Source of the DNA: Lingula anatina
Lineage: Eukaryota; Animalia; Brachiopoda
NCBI GenBank assembly: GCA_051362555.1
Contig: CM120643.1
Span: forward strand, 14,854,644-14,918,643
Reading direction: 5' to 3'
Length of the DNA stretch: 64,000 bases
In this document: piece by piece, positions 3,669 through 54,828 of the stretch
Layout: each line of letters starts with the position of its first letter
How positions within the stretch are numbered: position 1 is the first letter of the stretch
The notes under the pieces: model-generated
The model's database searches: none
What the model was told of the DNA's origin: nothing
The model's input: only the letters and a program-made list of their open reading frames with translations
Position numbers and translations under genes: made by a program

Positions 3669-4386
3669 ATGTCTCGCCCGGTCTCACGCTCCGGCAGTGA
3701 TCGCTCTCGGAAACGTTCACCACGACCAAGCGTCGACGAGGGGGTGGTTGTCGAACACAGTCCCAATTCCAGTCGCGGATCGTCCTCCAGCGCCGACAGC
3801 CTGGCACCGCCGCAGTACTCAGCGCGGGAGAGACTCGGCTTGTCGCCGGGTATAAGGCGGGCGCATCACGGGAGTGTTGGCGGCTCTGGAAGTCGCAGCC
3901 CCCTGCTACCTGCGACCCGTCTGCAAAGAAAGCAGCCGACGTGGCGGTCGCAGTCCTGCAGAAAACCCAGCAGACGACACCTTGAAGTGCCCCGTGAAAC
4001 GTGCCAGAAAAGGCGCAACAGTCTGCCGGACGCATACGACATAGACGACGAAGGGCACATCTCGGATGATGCAGGAGGGGAGTTTTACCGAGTCAGAAAT
4101 TTCACAGTTTCGCGCAAGGGTTTATTCAACAGGGGGGACTCCTACAAACGTAGGGTGCTTCTGCCTCAGCCGACGCTGGGAACCGGTGAAAGCAGTGACA
4201 GTGTTTTCGCAGACGACGAACCGCCGGTTTCGCCACGTGCATCGCCACGCGACAGTCGAACGTCAAGCACGGCGGCAGACCGTGTCTTCAGGGTGGCGGT
4301 CCTGGGGACCCCTGGAGTAGGAAGAATGTCCCTGGTGCGACAGTTTACGACTTCCGAAGACGTGGCTGCAAGGGGAACGCATTCGG
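3669..4386 (+). CDS. RGK-family (Rad/Gem/Rem-like) small GTP-binding protein, coding exon 1 of 4 (gene span 3669-24441, 432 aa)
   Basis: ATG at 3669 in a GC/CpG-rich ORF. Ser/Arg-rich N-terminal extension, RVRNFTVSRKGLFNRGDSY motif typical of invertebrate RGK-like proteins, beta1-G1 'FRVAVLGTPGVGRMSLVRQF'. GTAAGT donor at 4387 (phase 1). Confidence 0.88.
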
Positions 4387-5417
4387 GTAAGTTAATTGAC
4401 TTTGTGCTCTAGGCTGACGAAGTTATACTTAAAATCGGTCAAGCATTGGACACTTTTATCCAAAAGGCATCGGTGAAATAAATTCATTTGTCGTTATGCA
4501 GTTGTACTCCTTTTGGAGTATGATTAAAAGAGAACAAAAGAAAGTGCGAAAACACAGACACATTTTAGCGGTTCCTTTTTTGAGATTCATTATTTCTTTA
4601 ATTAATTCATTTTTACACCGTGTCCATATTAGTGGGTCTTCTTGGGGCGGTGCATTATTCATAGTCCTTAATTTTATATATAATATTATCTATATCACCA
4701 TTAAGTAATTTCAAGTTATCATTAAGGTTTTTGCAAATAGGACATCGCGATATATATAGGCTGTTTACATTAATTGGATTTTCACAAGAAAGGAGAGCAC
4801 CTGTAAAATGCTTTCTTTGCCTAGGTCAATTGTACCCAATCTGATACTTTCATCTTCCAACACAGCAGTATATTTTGATCTATTTGTCAAAAGATTATGC
4901 TCATCCGTGCACAAAAGACACTTTTGCCGCAAGGAAATGGTTGATAAATGTATGTCATACGCATGAGTTCAATAGGAAATGTGCGTTAGAAAACACATTT
5001 GTTGCCCATCGATAATTCTGTACTGAAAAAAAAATGCAGCAGCAACAAGTGTACGAAGCTCGCGGGTGCAAATGCCCTAGCAAAAGATTTTTCAAACACT
5101 GCCCGAAAGGATCTGATCAGAAAGTAGGTACATTTTTGTTTCCAGAGGGCAAAATATCGATGAGGAGTTTGACCCTTCCGATTAGCATGTGTCTAAGTAA
5201 AAAACACGTGAAAATGCTAAAAGAGTGAAGTGTATGCATTATTGATAAGCTGTGTATTGAGTTCTTTACCGTTGTCTGTCTACGGGGTATCGCAATATTT
5301 TTCCGATTAAAGTTTGTCGCAATGTGTTTTTTTTTAATGGTAACGGCATACTTAAAATGATGTGGGTTCCGCGTGAAACATTCATCAAGCGTCTGCATGG
5401 ATATTATGATGTTTATA

Positions 5418-18291: not shown

Positions 18292-18469
18292 TGCCGCGAT
18301 AAAGACGTGGACGCCTACATTGTCGTCTACGCTATAGCCGATAAGTGTTCATTCCAATACGTCTCTGAGATCCTTCAACGGTTACGCCAGACGGAGGGCG
18401 AGCACTGCGCTATCATCCTCGTGGGGAATAAAAGCGATCTCGCGAGAACGAGAGTTGTGAGCACAGATG
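18292..18469 (+). CDS. RGK-like GTPase coding exon 3 (G4 box)
   Basis: Polypyrimidine tract and tttcag acceptor. DAYIVVYAIADKCSF...IILVGNKSDLARTRVVS (G4 NKxD). GTAAGT donor at 18470 (phase 1). Confidence 0.92.
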
Positions 18470-21400
18470 GTAAGTTTTTCCTTATATTCTGTCCGCGTGT
18501 GCAATATGATGGTATTGAAGTAATGTTAAGAAGAAGGCATTTAAGCTAATTTTGGTAAATGAATCTAATAATCACATTTGGCAATGAAGCCCAACGATTT
18601 ACTGTATGCACGGGTTTGATGTTATTTTACAAAAAAATATGCGTGACCTGGTTTGTAGGGCCTACCCAAAACACCTCAAATTCAGGCAAACAGGGGGGAA
18701 ATACACATAAAGAGAATCTGCGCTAGTGAAGGTACTTGCTTTTTATAGCACAATCTATTAAGATGATCTGACAAATTAGAAGAGACCGAAATGCGTGTTT
18801 TTCAGAAACAAGATATCTAATTACTCACAAATCGTTCAAATGCATCAGATTACACCGTATTAATCATTTTGATTTACTCAGTGCATTGTTGCCAGCGCTA
18901 TACGACATAATTTCGAGACCCTCGTTTCAAAAGGTACTTCCGCAGCGATCGATTTGCTGCTTTAATCACTAGCTGTAAAGAACTGTGCGAATTGGAAGTA
19001 CTTAAGTATTGCATGGCGGTTCGTCGGAGATAGCGTTCATGTTGCGAAAAAAAGCTTTAGATAGACACAGTCCTCCAGTGTAATAGCTGCTGGCCCCACT
19101 GCATGTGTGCTGTTAGTAGTGGCATAATATCTTAATAAAAGAGAGAGAATTAGATGGTTGCAAATGGATTTTTGCAATAACGCTCGCTGTTTGACATGTA
19201 ATAGTCGGGTTTCTAATAACTTTGGAAGAGGGAAATGTGTGAATTATTTCTATGCTGAAAGTGCATTACGGGTAACTAATGCTATCAATCATATACGTTA
19301 TCTAACTGCATGACTACATGTAATTACTCAGTTGCGTAGGAAGCAGTTTTAAAGTGGGCACTGCCATTCAGAACAGAGATTAACGACGGGGACGTCAATT
19401 TATCCCTTTCCCGCTAGCTGTTTCTTTCACTTACATGACTGGCGTTGTTGCAAAAACTGGGGAATAACCCCCTCCCACCCGTAGAGGACGCCTTTAATCC
19501 ACCTACGTGTACTTTGTAGTTACCAAGACACACAGATGCCTAACATTTTAATGGCATATTCCTGCTGCCGTGTGGACTGGGAAATCAGGGAGACCAGGAC
19601 CCAGTTTCACAAAAAAAAGGCTACATGGTCTAATGGGCACATTTTATCCTATCAGAACTGACTTAAGTTTGTTTTTTGTTTGTTTGTTTGTTTTTTTTTT
19701 TTTTTTGTTGTTGTTGAGAGGCATCAAATAAACACATAACCTACTAATGCTTAGGCAATGTCATGATATAATGGATATTTTGAAACACTCTGTAGATACA
19801 CTGAGACCAGTACACCCTTAACGTTCAATTCCACTGACGTATGACGGCACACTTTAAAGGGGGCACCTTGGTTGGTTGATGACTTAACGACTGAATTAAT
19901 GCAGGCAATCAGGAAATGTTCTGCGGTGTCATTTTATGATTAGGAAATGATTTGGGTTAATAATTCTGGTATTTGCAGTAACTACTAAATAAATTCGACG
20001 GCATGAATTGGTTATTTTCCCGCTAAATTTGTTTCGCAAATTTTACTGAAGAGCGTTTATTCGAACGTTTGGAAAGGTAATTGGCTTCGTGTCAAAAAGC
20101 TCATCTTTGTGACTGCCTGTAAAACTTGAAAAGGTAAAATATTAGACAAAATTTAAAACAAATTATAATGAGCTACCCTAAATTAGTTCAAATGCCAAGC
20201 AGTGAACATGGTTATCATTACGTATGGCTAGAGTCGATATTGTCATAGCTGACTTCTACAATACGTATGTATGTGAACCTGATAACAAAACGCCCTCGAT
20301 TGTCGTCAAATAAATACACGACAGTATGAGCTAATCCTTTTCCCTTCTAATTGGTGGGGGTAATCTGTTAATCTGCTTTTTTCCAAAATGCCCTCAATCA
20401 ACACCATAATTACCAGTAATCGCATCTGTAAAATCTAGACATTCCTTTGGCGTGTATTTCTAGTACAACCAGTTTGCGTTATTTGCTAGTATTAATAATT
20501 AATCACATCAGTTGCCAAGCAAGTAAAGAGTGCCATTATGTGGTTGAGAAATCAACACTGGAACACGTAGAAACAACATTTGCGTGACGTGAGTAAGCCA
20601 GAAAACACCTGAAAACACCTGGGAAATTCTCCACGGGCTGGCGTAAACGACACTTGTTGTTCCCAGTTATGTTTTAGCTGACGCAGGTGTTTATTCACTT
20701 TTTTTTAATTTATGATCGAAAATAAATGCTGGCCAGAGAATTCGTTTCATGGCCATCACTACTTTCTCCTCTCCAAACTTGTAACTTTAGGCATCATTAG
20801 TTGTACGGATGCGGTAGTTTTTTATTGTAATTGGTTTGTTCGTTTATATACAGGGGCATTTAGCTTAGGTCACATTACAAAACCAATATACTTAAAAGTC
20901 GTCAGCTGCCGTAAACTTACGTCACATATAGCAAAACGTCTTCAAATAAAAATATAGGAAACTTCATTAATGGTAGGTCGCATATGTCAAGTCCTGCATT
21001 TTCCGTTATTTTAAAGAGGGCGTCACTTTCTGGGGCCTAAAATAAATAAAATGATAATTTCAAATCATTTGCAGTTATTTTTGACCATTTTGATCACAAG
21101 AGTTACGGGTGATGTGATCCTTGTATGGCGGGAATATTGCAGGTGTATACCCTATACCTCCGTCAAGAACAGAGTGCAGAAAGCACCAATGACGTTACTT
21201 TTGTAACAAGCATTACATTGGGCGGAAGACTACACTTGCTCCGTTGGCACCAAGCTGAAAATCAGCTCATTTTAAGTAAAACTTTATGGAAAATGAGGAA
21301 TGTTATTTTTGTTATTGCTGTTAATTCGTATTTTTTATTCTTTATCTTGGTGGATCTTTTTACCAAAGTGCCTCATAGAGTCACAGGGAAGATGAAATTT

Positions 21401-24148: not shown

Positions 24149-24441
24149 CTGGAAAGAAACTGGCGTCAATATTCAACTGCAAATTTATCGAGACATCAGC
24201 TGTCCTTAATCACCACGTTGACGAGCTGCTAGTGGGGACGCTGAGTCAAATTAACAGGAGAGAAATGCAGGTTGACGCCATTGTGAAAAGAGACGCTGCG
24301 GAGGAAGACAAATCTCTGAAAGAAAAAAATCGCATTTTCTCGAGCCTTAAGGCCGCCAAGGGACTTCTTAATAAACTGTTAAGAAAAGGACCCTCCTCTA
24401 ATTCATCAACGCCTTCAGACACAAAACTCAGCATGCGATGA
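24149..24441 (+). CDS. RGK-like GTPase coding exon 4 (G5 box and basic C-terminal helix)
   Basis: ttttgtag acceptor, phase 1. GKKLASIFNCKFIETSAVLNHHVDELLVGTLSQI is the characteristic RGK G5 segment, followed by amphipathic basic KAAKGLLNKLLRK. TGA at 24439-24441. Confidence 0.92.
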
Positions 24442-30618: not shown

Positions 30619-31850
30619 CTTTAGTCAAAATTAAGGTGCTAGGTCTGTTTTACAAATAGAAATGAATTATGTTTTATGCTGATGGTTATTTGGTTTTGGT
30701 GAGATACTGCTGATTTATCCTCGATAAAAGTAGAGCAAAACTACAACCTTTCAGCACCCAGCTTTTTTAATAGCCAGTAAAAATGTAACAGAAGCTATTG
30801 TTTGTTTTATCCGCTGGCTATAATTTGCAAGTCTTACTTGTTTTGAAATGTCTATTACCAGGTATCGCTTCTGGGAATCTAACCTTTGGTGAGATCCTTC
30901 AATTAAACCCTTGTCTTACATCAGGAGCACGGTTTCTGAGAATTCGAAGCAGGTAAATAATTACCTCGTGCACGTATATTATATTTCCCACCAATTTTTA
31001 GTGAGTGAACAAAAAGCAGCTGTGTTAACCGTAAGACAGCGAAGGGACACTGTTAATTAAAGTAAAGGAGATTGGAATCCTGTTGATTGTCTATCAGGTT
31101 AAAAGATAAACACGCCTCCTCTTGTTTTTAACGCACTCATATACTACCAGCTTTTCTGTTTTTCTGTATTCTACTCAACGTCCTAAGAAGGGGTGGTAAT
31201 CTGTTAATCTGATTACATTCAGCAAGAGTCCCTGTAGAGATGTGCACACAAGAGTGCACACAAGCTGGTATACGCTAGGTTCATCTTTCATCGTGAACGC
31301 TCCCTAAGTCGATGACAGTAATGGTCTATATCCCATCAAGCACTGCGCTGAAGCCACCTTATACTGGGATCCATTTCTCAAATGAACATTAGCCAATAGG
31401 CCCTCCATATTCTAAACACATAGACTAAATTTTTAGTCTAATTTGATCCAATATAAATCAGTGTTAGTAGTAAAATTATACGAAGCAATGCCCGTTTTAA
31501 AACTGGGAAGATGCGACAATGTATTTCAGGTAAAACTTAATTTATGAAGACCGTTGAAAAAATAAGACCAAATAATTGATCCAAAAAGTACGAGCAATGT
31601 TCAAAGTAAAAGATGTCTTTGAAACCAGCCTATGTTTCATACCAACAGCGCTGCCCCAAAGGTTTTCTCCCTAATCACAAAAATAACGCCCCATAGCTTT
31701 TCCCGATTGCTTCCAGTAATCAAGTCATAATGTCATTAACCTACCAAGGTACCGTATTTGAAGTGTGCATGCCGTCATACGTCAGTGAATGGGACATTAG
31801 GGTTACATCGGTGCCAATGTAACAGCATTTATATCTATACGTTTACAGGG

Positions 31851-32042
31851 TGTGACGACCCGATATGTCTGACAGGCCAGATATGTCCGACAAAAAAGAG
31901 CCAGTTGTGTCCGACACTTCTGGCTCTTTTTTGTCGGACATATCTGGCCTGTCGGACACATCTGGCTCTTTTTTGTTGGACATATCTGGCCGTCTCTGGT
32001 CGTAGGACATATCTGGCCTGTCGGACATATCGGGTCGTCACA
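31851..32042. mobile_element. Palindromic MITE with TGTGAC...GTCACA termini, built from gccagatatgtccgaca subunits
   Basis: TIR tgtgacgacccgatatgtc / gacatatcgggtcgtcaca, flanked by the direct repeat CAGGG (31846-50, 32043-47). Confidence 0.85.
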
Positions 32043-32312
32043 CAGGGTGTATCTAAATATCAGTTTTATATCACAACATGCTTTTGTACCAAATGTGTGC
32101 TTATCAGATACTTCTCTCTTCCCGTAGTAGTAGTAATCTACATGCAGCTGATGGCAATGGAAGATGTTTTGCTGTGTCAGCCATGGATCTTTTTCACCAA
32201 AAGGTTTAAGTTCTTTGCTTAAGCTTAGACTGCTAAAATCGGATATTCGATTATACAAGATCGACTCTGCGATCTTTCTTTTTTATAAATGGGCTGTAGG
32301 TCAGATATCCTT

Positions 32313-32574: not shown

Positions 32575-33040
32575 TAGTCAATTTTTACAGGTTGTGTAAT
32601 TGAAAGCATTCTAGCGTACGGAATTATAATATGGTATAGCGGAACAGCTGGGGAGGAAAGGAAGAGATTAGCAAACGTTGTAAAAACTGCAAGCAGGATT
32701 ATCGGGCAGGATCTCCCCAAGCTGGAAGATATTTTTAAAGACAGGATGGAGAAAAGAATTGTCAACACCATGAAAAACTCTTTCCATCCTGCATCATCTC
32801 TTTTTACGTTTTTACCAAGCAACAGTAGACTTTTAACTTTTAAAGGCAGTAAACGCTTTTTAAACAGCTTTTATCCAAGTGCAGTGACGCATTTTTAATT
32901 TGATCTCAAAACTAAATTCTTAATTTATTTATTGTATTATTTTATTATTTTACTCTGTATACTGCTCCAAAAGGAAAATGATTTCCGATTTTTATAATTG
33001 GCTAAATAAACTCTTATCTCTTATCTTATCTTATCTTATT
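32575..33040 (+). mobile_element. 5'-truncated LINE 3' end, Rex1/Babar-like
   Basis: My translation: CVIESILAYGIIIWY...LANVVKTASRIIG...HPASSLFTFLPS...RFLNSFYPSAV* (stop 32896-98), the Rex1-type RT C-terminus. Followed by AATAAA and a (TCTTA)n tail. Confidence 0.85.
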
Positions 33041-40718: not shown

Positions 40719-42155
40719 ATGGTGTTTTTCATTTTTCCTGTTTGCATCTTGCAACTGACATTTTTTCAGATAAAGAATTTGTTTGGTGAGAACCCTATTT
40801 CGCGGCGAGTGGGTAATATTCAAGTCCTTTCAGGATGTCATTTAAATCTTACAAGGCAATTGTACCACCAGATGACATTAACATCTGGATTACCAATTGG
40901 CGCAAGGGAAGTCGCACTGAAAATGATGGGCTCATCGTGTCTTTTGAATTACACCACTATGTTGGACACGGGACGTGGGGTTATTATAATAACAGGAGTT
41001 GAAGGAGAAAATTGCACTCAGCTGAAAAAAATTGCAAAAAGAAGCACTTTTGTTGACTTCAGGAAAACGGTCGACGGCTTGATACTAGCAGGCCAAGAGC
41101 GCATATCTCAAATCGTCCACGATACCGATAATGAATGGAAAAGTCTTTCAGGCGATCACTGGAACCTAACACAAGGTAATAACTACACGGCTGACTATAC
41201 AGAAAACAAGCGTGTGTGTATCAAAGCGTCACCCAAGAAACAACATTTAAACGTTAAACTTGACGGTTATTCATCAGTTTTGAAAACGGTTTACGAAGAC
41301 CAATATTTCTTTTGCTCACCAAGTGTTTCAAGCCGACTGACGGACAGTTTTCGAATGGCTGACTCTCTGTTCTCCAATAGCACATATTCTGAATATTGCG
41401 GGATCGTGAAATTGCCGAAAGTGCTTTTCACGGCCATGGTGCTGTACGGGGTGAATGAAGAAGAGTGCCTGGCCGGAAATACACTAGGCAATGAAGAAAC
41501 CAGCAATAAGTTGTATCTTTGCATACGGCAAAATTTATCAGAGCGTTTAAGTAGTAACCACGAATCAGGTCACCTCTGTCCATTCCGACCCAGTGTACTT
41601 CCGGGGGAGGTTTTAAACAACACGTGGGAAGTAGCAAAGCGCGTGTGCCCAATGGATGTCGATGACACCAATGGGCGTATCCTGGAAATGGTTGTAAAAA
41701 GTGATCCCCTTGAGTGTTTAATCTGGTTGTCCAGCGGTTCAACTTTGAAGATAAAAAAGATTATGGCAGCTTTAAGAGTATATTTATATGCTGTTTATGC
41801 TCTCAGTCCGTTGTCCTTTTTGAGCAACATTATCCTCGTCGTTGTTGTTGTAAACGGTGAAAAAAGACTCAAAGGAAAGTCAGAAACCAAGTCATTCCTG
41901 ACCTGCACCCTTGGCATAGCACACTGCCTTAGGGCGTTGAATGAGTTAGTGATTGCAATAGTGACCCAATCAAGCCAGACAGAAAATTTCGTCGGAATTA
42001 CGGTTGCCGTTTGCAACGTGCTGTCCAGTACAAACATATTCACCTCAGACTGGGCCGCAGTTCTCATCTTCACCATAACACTTGACAGGTTTCTTTTCGT
42101 CTGTTTCCCGTTTAAAACCAATTACATATGCTCCAGAAAAATTCTGTTCAGATCG
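40719..42155 (+). CDS. Orphan class A (rhodopsin-like, peptide/FMRFamide-receptor-like) GPCR paralogue A, exon 1: signal peptide, Cys-rich ectodomain, TM1-TM3
   Basis: 479-codon open frame with a hydrophobic N-terminus and many NxS/T sites. TM1 ...SNIILVVVVV, TM2 LGIAHCL, TM3 C...TLDRFLFVCFPF. GTAAGT donor at 42156 (phase 0). Full-length paralogue on the - strand. Confidence 0.9.
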
Positions 42156-42550
42156 GTAAGTTTTAGAGACTTGATGTAATGAAAGGTACAATTCGCGGCT
42201 CCTCAAATACCTTCGATATTTTTACTTTCTTTTTGTACGACTACCCTTAAATATCACGTAATACATCCTTAGATTAATGGATTTGCCAACTTTGCTTAAT
42301 AATTGCATTCATTATCATTACGATAAGACAATTAAGACAACGACAAGATGGGATAAATCAAAACAAAGACCAGTGATTAATCATAATCATAGGGTTATAG
42401 TATGTCCAAAAGTCGTTTTCAAGCTCTGAGATCCTTGATTATACATGTATACACTGGAGAATTCAGTATTAATCTAGACCACACAATGATAAAAACAATT
42501 CAAATAGCAGATAAAAACAATTAACCGTAATGTCTTGTTTTGCTAGTTAA

Positions 42551-42664
42551 AGGGATAATAACTCTTCGTTTTGACCAAAAAATGACTTTTCCTGGAGTAA
42601 ACAACAATTTTCCCATACTTACCAATGGTTAATAAATCCATTTTTACATTCAAAGTTAGTCCCT

Positions 42665-42717
<53 letters not shown>

Positions 42718-42916
42718 CTAAAAAGTTTTTTTATTATAATCTCTTAAGAGATTATAACAGAGTATAGCCATCAATGGAGGTCACGTGGTCTAAGGACAAG
42801 CTCAGATATCAGAATAATAGCTATCACTGCCATTTTATGGTGTATTATATTTCAATGAGTTGTTCACAATGTTTTTATTGTGAAATATAGATCTCACACG
42901 AAGAGTTATTATCCCT
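42551..42916. mobile_element. TTAA-flanked (Kolobok-like) MITE in the intron of GPCR paralogue A
   Basis: Perfect TIR AGGGATAATAACTCTTCG, TTAA on both sides, central palindrome ttataatctcttaagagattataa, expanded poly-T. Confidence 0.88.
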
Positions 42917-43118
42917 TTAAACTTAAGAGACAAGGAGTGCGGATACTCCCAAAGCGAGGTGGAGCGTGTCCAATGTTACCACTTAGATATGCCTTTAATA
43001 AACACTGCATGATGTCTTCCTATGTTTATCAGCTACCATAATCTTATATTGATAGAAAACGTAACCTTCCTTATATTATAAACCAGTATCTGAAACTGAA
43101 ACTTTTTCATTTACGCAG

Positions 43119-43646
43119 ATGGTTTTTGTCGCAGCAGCAGCATCTGGAGCCGTGGCCCTTGCAAGCTTAACCTACACCGACGCCCCGTGTGTCTTAGTCC
43201 TTGATGAATACAATGAATGGCAAAGGCGTTTGAGGATTATAACAGCAATACGCATCACCGGAAGAGCCATGATGTTACTCACCATTACCGTAATGAACTT
43301 CAAGATAATACGTTTAATCTGGTTCCAAAGAAAATGTCGAAAAGAACTCACATCTGGAAGAGGGGGTGAAAAAAAGGCAAAAGAAATAATAAGCACTCTG
43401 TCTTTGTTGGCTTCGTCTGTTTGTTTTCTGATTATGTGCACGGCAACTGTCATTAGTATGGTTGTAATGCAATATGCAGAGGGCGACAAAATCCATTATT
43501 TTGTGAACTTTCTCTTTTATAGTGGTAGAATTGGCGAGTTGTCGTACCATGCTTTCAATTTACTTGTTTTTCTGATAAGTGGTTCAGAATTTAGATCACA
43601 GTTCAAGGAGTTATTCAGTCGAAGCGCAGCCAATGCACGAACCTAA
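43119..43646 (+). CDS. Orphan GPCR paralogue A, exon 2: TM4-TM7 and helix 8 (total 654 aa)
   Basis: tttacgcag acceptor, phase 0. Four hydrophobic segments, ECL2 Cys, TM5 MNFKII, basic ICL3, TM7/H8 FNLLVFLISGSEFRSQF. TAA stop. Confidence 0.9.
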   Translation: MVFVAAAASGAVALASLTYTDAPCVLVLDEYNEWQRRLRIITAIRITGRAMMLLTITVMNFKIIRLIWFQRKCRKELTSGRGGEKKAKEIISTLSLLASSVCFLIMCTATVISMVVMQYAEGDKIHYFVNFLFYSGRIGELSYHAFNLLVFLISGSEFRSQFKELFSRSAANART

Positions 43647-45486: not shown

Positions 45487-45740
45487 TAATGAATGGAAAA
45501 GTCTTTCAGGCGATCACTGGAACCTAACACAAGGTAATAACTACACGGCTGACTATACAGAAAACAAGCGTGTGTGTATTAAAGCGTCACCCCGGAGGCA
45601 AAACTTGACGGTTATTCATCAGTTTTGAAAACGGTTTACGAAGACCAATATTTCTATTGCTCACCAAGTGTTTCAAGTCGACTGACGGACAGTTTTCGAA
45701 TTGCTGACTCTCTGTTCTCCAATAGCACATATTCTGAATA
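45487..45740 (+). pseudogene. Duplicated internal fragment of GPCR paralogue A ectodomain exon
   Basis: Near-identical to 41129-41395, except for a few substitutions and a 21-nt to 7-nt replacement (frameshift). Confidence 0.9.
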
Positions 45741-45939: not shown

Positions 45940-46220
45940 TTTTTACCTCCGCCAAGGAGGTTATGTTTTCAACCCTGTTTGTTTGTTTGTCTGTCTGTCA
46001 TCAACACAACTCAAAAAGTTATGGACCGATTTTGCTGAAAATTTCAGAAACTGTCAGAAGTGGGCCAAGGAACAGATGATTAGTTTTTGGTGGTGATCCG
46101 GATCAATAATCAATCAATAATCAATAATCAAAAATATCGAAAATTTAGGGGTGAAACGGCATTGGATGGAGACTTTGTTGCCTTGGCGGAGGTCTGCGCT
46201 CTCTGAGTGCTTTTCAAGTT
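45940..46220 (+). mobile_element. Helentron-associated interspersed element (HINE/DINE-1-like)
   Basis: Subterminal IR acctccgccaagg / ccttggcggaggt, (GTTT)n(GTCT)n microsatellite, 3' stem-loop gcgctctctgagtgc, T-rich ends. Confidence 0.88.
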
Positions 46221-46566
46221 GACGCTTGAAATAGATCATTTTAATTCACAAATTAGTTTATTGTCAGGGATGTTTCTTTCATCACCAAAACACAAAACAT
46301 ACAAAAATATATAACACCTTATCCAAAACCATTGAGAAAAGTGCCATCTATATAAACCTGTTTTAAATTAAATAATATGTTTACTGCTGTATTTCTCAGC
46401 AACATTCAGAGATAGAAACTGGTGCATTTATGGCGAGATGCTAAACAAGCGTTAATCGTTATCGATAACAAATTAGTCCTTAGGGACGTCATTCTTCTTT
46501 AACAATACAAAACATAGCAAGTCAAATTACAAAAGCAAGATGTATAGTATTATGAAAATTTATATG

Positions 46567-47243
46567 AGTAAATTTAAGCTACTAGGAGTAACTCTGACCC
46601 TTGATCTCAAGTGGACAGAACATGTGCAGTTAATTTATTCAAAGTCTTGTGCCAAGCTTTTTTATCTCAGGCAGTTGAAAAGGGCAAATCTGGCCACTGA
46701 GGATCTAATAGTTATATATCAATCGATAATTAGATCAGTCCTAGAATATGCATGTCCTGTGTGGGAGCCTGGTCTTACAGCCGAACAATGTGAATGCTTA
46801 GAATCTGTTCAAAGGAGAGCTCTTAGAATTATTTACCCATTTTATACTTACAAGGATGCCCTACAGGCTAGTAATCTCACCTCTCTGAGGGAGAGAAGAG
46901 ACGTTTTATTTAAGAACTTTTTACAAATATCAAGAATTTTAATAAGCTACACCATCTGTTTAAACAAAAGAACCCAAGAAATCTCAGGGTCAGCAACAAA
47001 TTTTTAATACCAAAAGTGAAAACGGAGCGTTTTAAATCATCTTTTATAATGCACAGTTTTTTAAATTTCATGTAAATTACTGCTTCAAACTGTCTTATAA
47101 GTCTTGTTTTAAAGCTTTGGTCCTTAAGTTTACAATTTTTAGTTAATTTTAAAATACCTTATGATTTTACTATTTAAGACACATTGTAAAACTTCAACCT
47201 TTAGGTTGCGATTTTAGCAAATAAATTATTATTATTATTATTA
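46567..47243 (+). mobile_element. 5'-truncated CR1/L2-group LINE (RT C-terminal part and tail)
   Basis: KLLGV...LKWTEHV...LFYLRQLKR...YQSIIRSVLEYACPVW...LESVQRRALRII, then a frameshift, a 3' UTR, AATAAA and an (ATT)n tail. Confidence 0.9.
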
Positions 47244-48710: not shown

Positions 48711-49110
48711 TATGAGGGCCAGGATAAGACGGAAACATCTAAAAGGATAATGTACATGTCATTTTAACGAAATATCGATATAAAGATGATGACTTCAATT
48801 AACTAACATATATCACCTGACCTATTTACTCCCTTAAGGTGACGACGATTTACTTAGGTGACGACGAATTACTTATATCTTCCATATCGATATAAATTAA
48901 CAACTAAATTCACATTTACAAAATGTTCTATAAAGTTACTTTCTTACGTACTGAAGAGAACAACCTGATTGCGTCCAGCACTAGTATGCACTGGCTTATA
49001 TGGCTGCTGCAACTAAAAACTACTCAAATATTCATAAAATGATGATATACGATGATATGCGTTAGTTGTGACTGCGTGACTAAATTGTCGCCGTCAACAA
49101 CAAAGCTGAC

Positions 49111-49689
49111 TAATGCCCCTATTTCACACAGACCACGAATCCCATGAATCGCCAGGAATTGACAAATTTCAGGATTCTTGAGATTTTGCAAATTTTCTGG
49201 CCTAATTCGACACGCTGTACGATTCAGTTACGATACAGGTGCGATATTGTTACGAATATTCGTGGGATTCGGCTGGAATCGCACGAATATTGTCAAAAAT
49301 TCACTACGATTTTTTGGAATCGGGAGTTCGTGGCCAAAATTTTAAACAGCTCAAAATTTTACCACGAATTCCCGATTGATCAAGAATTGCCAGAACTGAC
49401 TACGATTATATACGAATCTGTTAAGGACTTCACGAACTGATTACGACAACCACGAATCCTGAAATTTGTCAATTCCTGGCGATTCGTGGGATTCGTGGTC
49501 TGTGTGAAATAGGGGCATCAAAGTTTTTGCCACGAATTCCTGTTGGTCAAGAATTGCAAGAACTGACTACGAATATATACGAATCTGTTAAGAACTTCAC
49601 GTACTGATTACGATTCAACCACGAATCCTGAAATTTGTCAATTCCTGGCGATTCGTGGGATTCGTGGTCTGTGTGAAATAGGGGCATTA
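49111..49689. mobile_element. Foldback MITE with ~65-bp TIRs (PIF/Harbinger-like) and a tandemly duplicated right arm
   Basis: taa|tgcccctatttcacacagaccacgaatccc ... gggattcgtggtctgtgtgaaataggggca|tta. The right arm occurs twice (ending ~49518 and 49689). Reiterated acgaat motif. Confidence 0.88.
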
Positions 49690-50169: not shown

Positions 50170-50425
50170 TTCAATTATTCATGTCATTCTCAGAGAACGT
50201 TCATGGTTTTGTCCATTATTTTGTTATCATTCCTTAGTGCACTAAAAACTACTTCGACTAGCAACTCTAAGCTGTGGGGCTCTACATTTTTCATGTTTTT
50301 ATCATGCAACTCTCATTTTAAAGAGCATAATTTGTTTTGTGAGAATCCTATTTCACGGCGTGTGGGGAATATTTAAGTTAAGTCCGTGACGTCAAAGAAT
50401 CTTTGAAATCAATAGGGGCATCGTC
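50170..50425 (+). pseudogene. Decayed 5' fragment of a further GPCR paralogue (upstream region and N-terminus)
   Basis: Encodes NLFCENPISRRVGNI, matching NLFGENPISRRVGNI / NLFSENPVSRRVGNI, then a stop. Start codon lost and signal region frameshifted. Upstream 'gtcattct...ttcatg' resembles the paralogue B upstream region. Confidence 0.75.
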
Positions 50426-51250: not shown

Positions 51251-51775
51251 TCATGCACTGGGTGCGTTTCGACAAAACAATACCTTGAACTGTGACCTAA
51301 ATTCCGAACCACTGATTAGAAACACCAGTAAGTTGAACACATGGTAGGTCAACTCTGAGATTCTACCGATAAAATACATGTTGAAAACATACCCAGGAAG
51401 GTCTTTCGTATGTACATATGATGTCACAACCATACAAATAACAGAGGTTGTGCACATAATAAGAAAACTAAAAGACGAAGCCAACAAAGACACGGTACTT
51501 ATTATTTCTTTGATCTTGTTCTCATTTCTTCTTCCAGACGTAAGTTCTTTTCGAGATTTTCTTTGAACCCAGACAAAATGTATTATCTTGAAGTTCATCC
51601 CGGTTATGGTGAGTAACATCATGGCTCTTCCTGTGATACGAATTGCTGCTACAATCCCTAAGCGCCTTTGTAACCCTTGTAGGTATTCCCGAGCAACAAA
51701 CACACACGAGGCATCAGTGTAAATTAAACTTGCCAAGGCTACGGCCCCAGATGCTGCTGCTGCGACAAACACCAT
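51251..51775 (-). CDS. Orphan GPCR paralogue B, exon 2 (total 659 aa)
   Basis: ttttcgcag acceptor. MVFVAAAASGAVALASL...FNLLVFLISGSEFRSQF as in paralogue A. TGA stop. Confidence 0.9.
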   Translation of the reverse strand: MVFVAAAASGAVALASLIYTDASCVFVAREYLQGLQRRLGIVAAIRITGRAMMLLTITGMNFKIIHFVWVQRKSRKELTSGRRNENKIKEIISTVSLLASSFSFLIMCTTSVICMVVTSYVHTKDLPGYVFNMYFIGRISELTYHVFNLLVFLISGSEFRSQFKVLFCRNAPSA

Positions 51776-53373
51776 CTGCGAAAATGAAACAAGGCAGCAA
51801 AGTTGTCAAATGTACATACAGAAAGCAGAAAAAGGATGCACAAAATACATTAAGGTCATTTCATCAATTTCGATACAACATATCATTGCTTAACAGCATA
51901 ATAACCAATTTGAAATATAGGCAACATGGACATCAGTATGTTTAAAGATTATCCTCTGAAAATGACAATTTGTGAAAAATGAACATTAAAAAAAAAAAAT
52001 AAAAATAAAAAAAAAAAAAAAGCTTCAAAAAGGGACGTAATAAGGCTGGTTTTCTAAAATCCAGCTGTATTTTAGCCATAAGAAGATTTTCTTTTAGTTA
52101 GAGCATAATTAGGAACATTGATCTCCTTTAATACGGCTTTAGACAGTGCACAAAAAAGGTTATCGTCAATCATTAAGCAATATTTATATTTATGTTATAA
52201 CACAATACTTAAAGATGCTCAATTACAAAAGCCGACCAAATGTCACCAGATATTTTTTTAATAGTATAATACCAAAAGACATCGTTTCATATCACTTGAA
52301 AAATGATATTTGACATGATTTTTCGGCTTGCTTTCCATGCTGTGCGTAAATGGGGCAGATAAGTGGGTTAAGTTCACAACCAAAATTTTAAAGATACAGT
52401 TTAAAACTCTCTAATTGCTGATCGATTACTAGTGATTAATTCAGTTTATCCCTTGGCATGTTAACTTTATTTGAGTCGTATAAGAAACTAATAGAAATGG
52501 TTTATATGTGTTACTGGAATCCATGCCCCACCGTCACTCGGTTCACATGCACCTTTAACAGCAGAATGGCGACTGATTTTTAATTATGTACTACAGGTAA
52601 CATGGACATTCAGAAACTGTAACGAGCATGAGGCTTGGGGTCTCACATTAAAAATGCCAATATGTAAAAATGAACATTTCATTAAAAACCTGCACAAGTT
52701 CATGAAATTTAGTCAAACAAAGATATTTGATCTGTATTTAAGCGCTATAAATCACTTCCGTAAGTTTGAGTTTAATAAGGGCAAATTACTTTGATTGTGT
52801 ATCGTTAGACAGTGCACAAAATTAGTATTTTAGTCAGCTTTGATGCAATTTTACGTAATACTGAACATCATAATCGCCACCAACTTTTTATATATACTGT
52901 TGCTTATATGGATAATGAAAATGTAAATGGCAAAGGGTTTCAGCCCCATTTGTGGGGTTCAAAGTCATTATGTCGGTAATTAAGAAGCATCAGGTACTGA
53001 TTCATGTTAAAAAGATGCGACCTTTGGTACCGAATAGAAAAATTTTAATTTTTAAAAAAGCGTCATCATTTATCCATGGCGGACCCAGGGGGATACAGTG
53101 AGCCACAAACACTGTATTCAAACTCGTTTTCCATCTCTCACCATTGAAGGATTTAATTTTTTAGGATTTCACGTGTGTGTATATGTGTGTATTATAATTT
53201 TTCATTTACTTATTTTTTTACAACTCACAAAGTTAAGAAGTTTCATAAATACATAGATCACTAAAGAGATAAACAAGCCTCGCTTATCATCATCACGCTC
53301 AGTAATACTTTCAGAAATTACAAGAACCTCTTATGAACTTTCCCAATCATAACTTCACAACTAAAGTACGTAC

Positions 53374-54828
53374 CGATCTGAAGAACGTTTTTCTGGAGCA
53401 TATGAAACTGGATTTGAACGGGAAACAGACGAAAAGAAACCTGTCAAGTGTTATGACGAAGATGACAACTGCAGCCCAGTCTGCGGTGAAGAAATCAAAA
53501 ATGCCCATTACGTTGCAGGCGGCTGAGGTAAGCCAGGAGGGATAGCCTGTCTGATTGGCAGTGTTCACAATTGCTATCGATAATTCACTCAACGCCCGAA
53601 GACAGTGCGCTATTCCGAGAGCACACGTCAAGAAGGACTTGGTTTCTGATCTTCCTTTAAGTCTTTTTTCGCCCATTAGAACAACAACAACGAGGATAAT
53701 GTTGCTGAATAAGGACAATGGAATGAGAGCATAAACAGTATACAAATATACACTTAACGTCCTGGTCATATTTTCTGTGACTAAATACATACGCTTGGAC
53801 GACCAGAAAAGGCATTCTTGTATATTGTTTTTTATTGACATTTCTAGAACACGTGGTTTGATGTTCTCCACGTCCATTGGACATACACGCTTTGCTAGTT
53901 GCCACGTGTTATTCAAAACTTGGGGCGAAAGGATATTAGGTCGGATAAGACAAAAATTGACTTTTTCGCTATATCTCTGAAAAATATTTGGTAAATTTTG
54001 AAAATCTTGTCGAAAGCAAAGATATAACTCATTACTGGTTTCTACATTTCCTTGTTTATTTCCGGCCAGGCACTCTTCTTCGTTCAACCCGTACAGCACC
54101 GTGGCCGTGAAAAACTCCTCTGACATCTCAACGATCCCACAATATCCATAATATGTGCTGTTAGAGAACCAAGAGTCAGTCAACATCAAACTGTCTGTCA
54201 GTCTGTTTGAAAACTTCGGAGAGCAATAGTAATATCTGTCTGTGAAAACGGTTTCCATTTCATCTGATAAAGCAGAATCATGATCGCCATGTACTTGTAT
54301 ATCATGGTTTTCTCGCGATGCTTTGATACACACACGTTTGCTTCCAGTAGAGTTAGCAGTAGAGTTATTACCTTGTGTAAGGTAACGGTGACCACTTGAA
54401 GTATTTTTCCCTTCATTATCGCGTTCAGAGACGATTTGAGACAGGTGCTCATGGCCATCTTGTTTCAATTCCTCAATCGTTTTCTTAAAGTCGACAAAAG
54501 TACTTCTTTTTGCGCTGTCACTCAGCTGAGAGCAATTTTCTCTTTCAACTCCCATCAAAACAATAGCCCTGCGCCTGGGGTCCAACATATTTGTGAAATT
54601 AAATAGACACGCCGTGTCCATTGTTTTCAGGGCGACTTCCATAATGTCGATAGGTAAACCTGTTGTTGCTGATATCTGGTCGTGCAACTGCCTTGTAAGG
54701 TTGAAGTGGCATGCGGAGAGGACGTGAATATTTCCCACTCGTCGCGAGACAGGATTCTCACTAAACAAATTTCTGATCTGAAAAAATGAAAGTTGAATAA
54801 TGCAAACAGGAATAATGTAGAACACCAT
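53374..54828 (-). CDS. Orphan class A GPCR paralogue B, exon 1
   Basis: 485 codons, homologous end to end with 40719-42155, with all ectodomain Cys and TLDRFLFVCFPF conserved. GTACGT donor at the same codon position (after FRS). Confidence 0.9.

Follow-up and report, generated by a model that had tools for sequence, protein, structure and literature searches.

The window analysed here, a stretch of 64,000 nucleotides (nt) from the brachiopod Lingula anatina (GenBank assembly GCA_051362555.1, contig CM120643.1, positions 14,854,644 to 14,918,643), is animal DNA of about 37% GC that carries microsatellites. It contains two intact two-exon paralogues facing each other, gene A (654 amino acids, + strand) and gene B (659 amino acids, - strand), and each of them encodes a hydrophobic leader, an ectodomain of about 325 residues and a class A-type seven-transmembrane (7TM) part. 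A preliminary description of the same DNA had singled out positions 40776-41750, which correspond to residues 20-344 of the gene A open reading frame (ORF; 40719-42179, +), as an unassigned ectodomain fused to a peptide-receptor-like 7TM; the ORF of gene B occupies positions 53347-54828 (-).

Exon 1 of gene A (40719-42155; residues 1-479) encodes the leader, the ectodomain, transmembrane helices TM1-TM3 and most of intracellular loop 2 (ICL2), and has a GT donor at its end. It is followed by a phase-0 intron (42156-43118, GT..AG, containing repetitive elements) and by exon 2 (43119-43646), which encodes TM4-TM7, helix 8, a short tail and the stop codon. In gene B, exon 1 (53374-54828; residues 1-485) encodes the leader, the ectodomain (at about 53776-54756) and TM1-TM3, and a phase-0 intron (51776-53373), placed at the identical codon position, separates it from exon 2 (51251-51775; TM4-TM7, helix 8 and stop). 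In both genes the GT donor follows the FRS codons and the AG acceptor precedes MVFVAAA; splicing was read from the DNA and not from RNA reads. The fusion of ectodomain and 7TM proposed earlier holds as far as TM3, through which one open exon runs from the leader in either gene, and needs correction beyond it, as TM4-TM7 are encoded by the second exon.

A conserved ectodomain

The eleven cysteines of the ectodomain (residues 40, 74, 99, 167, 199, 227, 250, 268, 287, 310 and 333 in gene A; 40, 74, 99, 167, 202, 230, 253, 271, 293, 316 and 339 in gene B) are positionally conserved, as had been noted: 11/11 align, with a chance of 0.563^11 = 0.0018 at the background identity of 56%. Two 3-residue indels separate A from B, both of whole codons and both in the linkers, and A has 8 NxS/T sequons where shuffled sequences have 3.4, B 9 where they have 4.2 (P ~0.01 each), with six sequons at aligned positions; both properties had likewise been described. 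What does not hold is the label "Cys-rich", since cysteine makes up only 3.4% (A) and 3.3% (B) of the ectodomain versus 2.9% of the gene A 7TM part, and the region is therefore better called Cys-conserved. The shortest distance between neighbouring cysteines is 18 residues in both genes, which excludes compact modules of the EGF, LDLa or GPS type, and a motif scan found no CC, CxC or CxxC in either ectodomain. The cysteines would form disulfides, five pairs with one left spare, the number being odd.

The ratio of nonsynonymous to synonymous substitution rates (dN/dS) in the ectodomain is 0.40 (bootstrap 95% confidence interval, CI, 0.30-0.55; dS ~0.7), near the value of 0.33 for the 7TM part, and residues 121-200 are less constrained (0.57, CI up to 1.06). 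The ectodomain is under purifying selection, and its standing as a real coding region is supported.

We searched for known relatives of this region, whole and in halves. Comparison with Pfam, NCBIfam and the sequences of PDB gave no match beyond noise, the best being MGT5A_N (E 0.021, in one of four halves) and Artemis (E 0.075). Compact cysteine modules (EGF, LDLa, TSP1, Frizzled cysteine-rich domain, nine-Cys domain, Ly6) have no Pfam match, and their cysteine spacing is unlike the one seen here. Neither CxCxH nor W..GC, the motifs of GPS/GAIN regions, is present, and GPS, GAIN, 7tm_2, 7tm_3 and Venus-flytrap models of Pfam do not match. For leucine-rich repeats (LRRs) there is no Pfam match either, with motif matches at 1 and 1 in the two ectodomains vs 1.3 and 1.2 expected, and a second pattern matching in neither of them; a P10-like FxPC motif and a CC hinge motif are absent from both. 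A HMMER search over 1,835,955,588 representative proteins, RefSeq animal proteins included, retrieved one protein at E <= 0.001, a tandem-repeat protein of Styela, which we rejected, as its score sums eight weak stretches of which the best reaches 10.8 bits. The earlier statement that the ectodomain holds no recognisable module is thus upheld by the motif and HMMER searches, which found no true relative, and by those of Pfam, NCBIfam and PDB sequences, which gave no confident match to a known domain.

The ectodomain may nonetheless be a known extracellular fold that has diverged beyond sequence detection, an explanation compatible with the same function and one to which we assign a substantial probability, somewhat below even; SEA-, Cache- and periplasmic-binding-like folds are the leads to consider. 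The search profiles contained 2-4 sequences, both AlphaFold models (built from two and four input sequences) were of low confidence, with predicted local distance difference test (pLDDT) scores of 29.6 and 33.6, fold searches with the second model were uninformative, and word-limited searches retrieved no relatives even for the 7TM part, which indicates that the gene is very divergent. Against it stands the lack of any Pfam or PDB-sequence match above the noise level given above, whether the whole ectodomain or its halves were used.

The first half of the gene A ectodomain (40791-41288, +; residues 25-190, with Cys40, 74, 99 and 167) and the second half (41289-41753, +; residues 191-345, with seven cysteines) look suggestively like distant repeats. 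They align collinearly at 19% identity, with the anchors C40/C199, GVEGENC/GVNEEEC (C99/C250) and KRVC/KRVC. A two-by-two profile score of the halves has P 0.0185 (2000 shuffles) with a split point that was picked after the motifs were noticed; one of the four single-sequence pairs has P < 0.05. Across 32 non-independent settings, half-versus-half alignment reaches P <= 0.05 in 24 and falls short in the remaining 8, which are the unshifted semiglobal settings. Judged from sequence, a two-fold internal repeat is about as probable as its absence.

The seven-helix part

Exon 1 of both genes matches the Pfam family 7TM_GPCR_Srsx above its cut-off of 24.1 bits (28.5 bits in A, residues 365-477; 31.1 bits in B), and exon 2 of gene A matches positions 152-257 of the 257 in the model (E 4.5e-4), in agreement with the earlier reading of the 7TM as peptide-receptor-like; it is of class A, peptide-receptor or serpentine-like. 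Hydropathy places six segments of gene A above threshold, and the Srsx match, which reaches the end of the model, accounts for the seventh. With positions numbered by eye from class A motifs, the anchors of gene A are N370 (N1.50), C432 (C3.25), C503 in extracellular loop 2 (ECL2) and DRF (R457), and the same are found in B. A helix-8-like segment is kept, followed by a C-terminal tail of about 10 residues. Word-based protein searches with the 7TM part found no relatives, and TM4-TM7 retrieved no G-protein-coupled receptor (GPCR) from PDB. Charged residues are common to A and B in TM2, TM3, TM5 and TM7 (gene A residues 402-626, window positions 41922-43560, +: H402, R405, E409, D443, R524, R528, R619, E622 and H626), and may form a polar pocket.

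Such a bundle could belong to an atypical, non-signalling receptor (a decoy, scavenger or adhesion protein) whose ectodomain binds while the helices are uncoupled from G proteins. This would explain why D2.50, W4.50, P5.50, P6.50 and NPxxY have been lost and why the chain ends just ~10 residues past helix 8. On the other hand, DRF, C3.25 with its ECL2 partner, N1.50 and the helix-8-like segment are retained, the 7TM part evolves under purifying selection (dN/dS 0.33), and loss of motifs is frequent in divergent chemoreceptors; we consider a non-signalling receptor unlikely.

Leader, expression and neighbouring sequence

The leader of gene A (40719-40787, +; residues 1 to about 23, with the cleavage site placed by eye) is likely a signal peptide by hydropathy, and a twelfth conserved cysteine, Cys9, lies within it. 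The 3' end of the leader looks like a perfect phase-0 splice acceptor (TTTTTTCAG, nt 43-51 of both genes), which raises the alternative that the leader is the end of an intron and that the true N-terminus, perhaps with further domains, comes from an upstream exon; the leader dN/dS of 0.21 has an interval that includes 1 (CI 0.03-1.12). Yet the leaders of A and B are identical at 43/51 nt without indels, versus 21/51 at the 3' ends of the true introns (binomial P 9e-6) and 19/51 upstream of the ATG, the ATG occupies the same position in A and B with similarity ending there, and in gene B an in-frame stop lies two codons upstream of it. The leader is therefore most likely coding, and an upstream exon is very improbable.

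Eight of nine RNA runs were examined, about 6-30% of each. Transcription is borne out at trace level for gene B (three of the eight, all from study P1, with a few reads each) and not for gene A (none of the eight). In run X1, gene B has depth 0.5 over the ectodomain (54025-54625) and 0.48 over exon 2; in X3, 0.37 at the TM1-TM3 end and 0.72 over exon 2; in X2, 0.11 over exon 2. First mates lie on the + strand throughout, which fits minus-strand RNA provided that the libraries follow the common stranded protocol. The pattern fits a receptor of rare cells, and the samples may contain no transcripts of gene A at all.

Two decayed copies are located between genes A and B. One, at 45487-45740 (+), is a recent, broken duplicate of part of the gene A ectodomain (residues ~138-225), with 92% nt identity and a 13-nt deletion. 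The other, at 50275-50378 (+), is what is left of the 5' end of a third copy: it covers the leader and the start of the ectodomain, shares 78-80% of its nt with A and B, and has a frameshift and no ATG. These remnants between the intact genes suggest that copies have been gained and lost locally. The lineage restriction proposed in the preliminary description appears to hold in the collections searched, and the proposed family consists, within this window, of the two intact genes and the two remnants.

Elsewhere in the window, a Ras-family GTPase gene (3669-24441, +) has at least three exons (3669-4412, ~18298-18480 and ~24154-24441; Pfam Ras E 2e-11 in the middle exon), and by its motifs it looks like the RGK type (Rem/Gem/Rad). 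ORF fragments at 46540-47007 (+) and 32578-32898 (+) resemble the C-terminal ends of reverse transcriptases of long interspersed nuclear element (LINE) type; the former also has a weak Pfam ALKBH8_N match (E 1e-4) and is covered by RNA reads from divergent copies in runs X7 and X9. Short interspersed repeats at ~42547-42920, 45940-46220, 49100-49650 and 51787-51824, some of them in the receptor introns, show high RNA depth from other copies. A short tandem repeat array at ~31850-32050 encodes repeated ICPT/LACRT-like units in several frames.

Relation to known receptors and a proposed function

Class A GPCRs with large ectodomains usually carry recognisable modules, and receptors of the srw/srsx/FMRFamide-receptor-like group typically have short N-termini. 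Genes A and B resemble srw/srsx expansions in their best Pfam family (PF10320), in DRF and C3.25, and in being lineage-restricted, locally duplicated and expressed at a very low level. Among lophotrochozoans, the available portions of the literature describe lineage-specific srw-like receptors in the planarian Srf/w expansion (PMC4862687) and candidate srw/srsx/srx receptors in bivalves (PMC11682238); unlike the receptors in those portions, A and B have a signal-like leader and an ectodomain of 325 residues. With adhesion GPCRs and class C receptors (PMC2246102 and PMC4302439, in excerpt) they share a large N-terminal region before the 7TM, predicted to be glycosylated in A and B, but their 7TM is of class A type and has no GPS (CxCxH), GAIN, 7tm_2, 7tm_3 or Venus-flytrap match in Pfam. 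The same excerpts report new combinations of known domains in amphioxus adhesion GPCRs (PMC2246102) and rhodopsin clusters specific to sponges (PMC4302439). In the main text of the Lingula genome paper (PMC4595640), "GPCR" and "G-protein" have 0 occurrences, and literature searches found no description of this receptor family.

The best-documented analogy is with the glycoprotein hormone receptors, which offer a working model of capture by an ectodomain relayed to the bundle; in the LH receptor, according to the excerpted account, the hormone is bound by the large ectodomain and the bundle is activated by a hinge fragment (bioRxiv 10.1101/2021.08.03.454894). A and B are like TSHR, FSHR, LHCGR and the LGRs in joining a class A 7TM to an ectodomain of about 350 residues, and these receptors give the best, if weak, PDB match for TM1-TM3. 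Unlike LGRs, they lack LRRs, the hinge CC motif and the P10-like motif, and their cysteines are evenly spread. That they are highly degenerate LGR relatives, with a decayed LRR solenoid and hinge, is the least probable of the alternatives: TSHR, FSHR or LHCGR constructs do make up 8/10 of the PDB rows for TM1-TM3 (E 0.002-0.04), the ectodomain length is comparable, an acidic residue occupies 3.37 and the Styela repeat protein, the only library match, looks LRR-like by eye, but LRR motifs are not enriched, CC, CxC and FxPC are missing, TM4-TM7 matched no GPCR of PDB, Srsx outscores 7tm_1, and the ends of ICL2 and TM7 look FMRFamide/srw-like by their motifs.

The pair is best read as a lineage-restricted GPCR of peptide- or chemoreceptor type whose orphan ectodomain would capture the ligand. 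The leader would direct the N-terminus to the outside of the cell and be cleaved; the ectodomain would fold as a glycosylated, disulfide-held module, possibly of two distantly related lobes that arose by internal duplication, and would bind a large extracellular ligand, be it a protein, a peptide or a glycan; and the signal would be relayed to the divergent class A bundle and on to G proteins, in a small number of rare cells. By analogy with the srw/srsx-type expansions of lophotrochozoans, the receptor may serve in sensing or recognition. That the conserved orphan ectodomain on this divergent rhodopsin-class pair is such a capture module, signalling to its bundle, seems to us somewhat better than an even proposition.

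Several observations weigh against it. Profiles of 2-4 sequences leave room for remote homology to a known fold, and the hhalign comparison of the two halves is not significant (P 0.062). When exons were scanned separately, exon 1 alone scored 20.0 and 26.2 bits with Pfam 7tm_1 vs a cut-off of 30.5, and the best solved-structure match of TM1-TM3 is the thyrotropin receptor, which is weak (E 0.002) and not a peptide receptor. Several activation motifs of class A are gone, with His (H402) at 2.50, no W4.50, P5.50 or P6.50, and NLLVF in place of NPxxY in TM7. The coding exons of gene A have no coverage beyond 0.03 in single bins in any of the eight RNA runs, and among the sampled reads none that span an intron are listed for either gene.

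A bolder version, in which a chemoreceptor-type class A GPCR independently gained a two-lobed ectodomain of new fold through internal duplication and uses it to capture protein or glycan cues, we hold to be doubtful. The weight of the finding is limited by its resting on two genes. Searches of the protein collections recovered neither of them, which shows that public gene sets miss such receptors. If a chemoreceptor-type 7TM carries a conserved ectodomain without detectable relatives, that ectodomain would represent a ligand-binding module of a new kind, and large ligands would be sensed by a separate route; if the two-lobed version is true, brachiopods would have invented this ectodomain in parallel to the LRR ectodomain found in LGRs and to the Venus flytrap of class C sensors, in a receptor that diversifies through gain and loss of copies.
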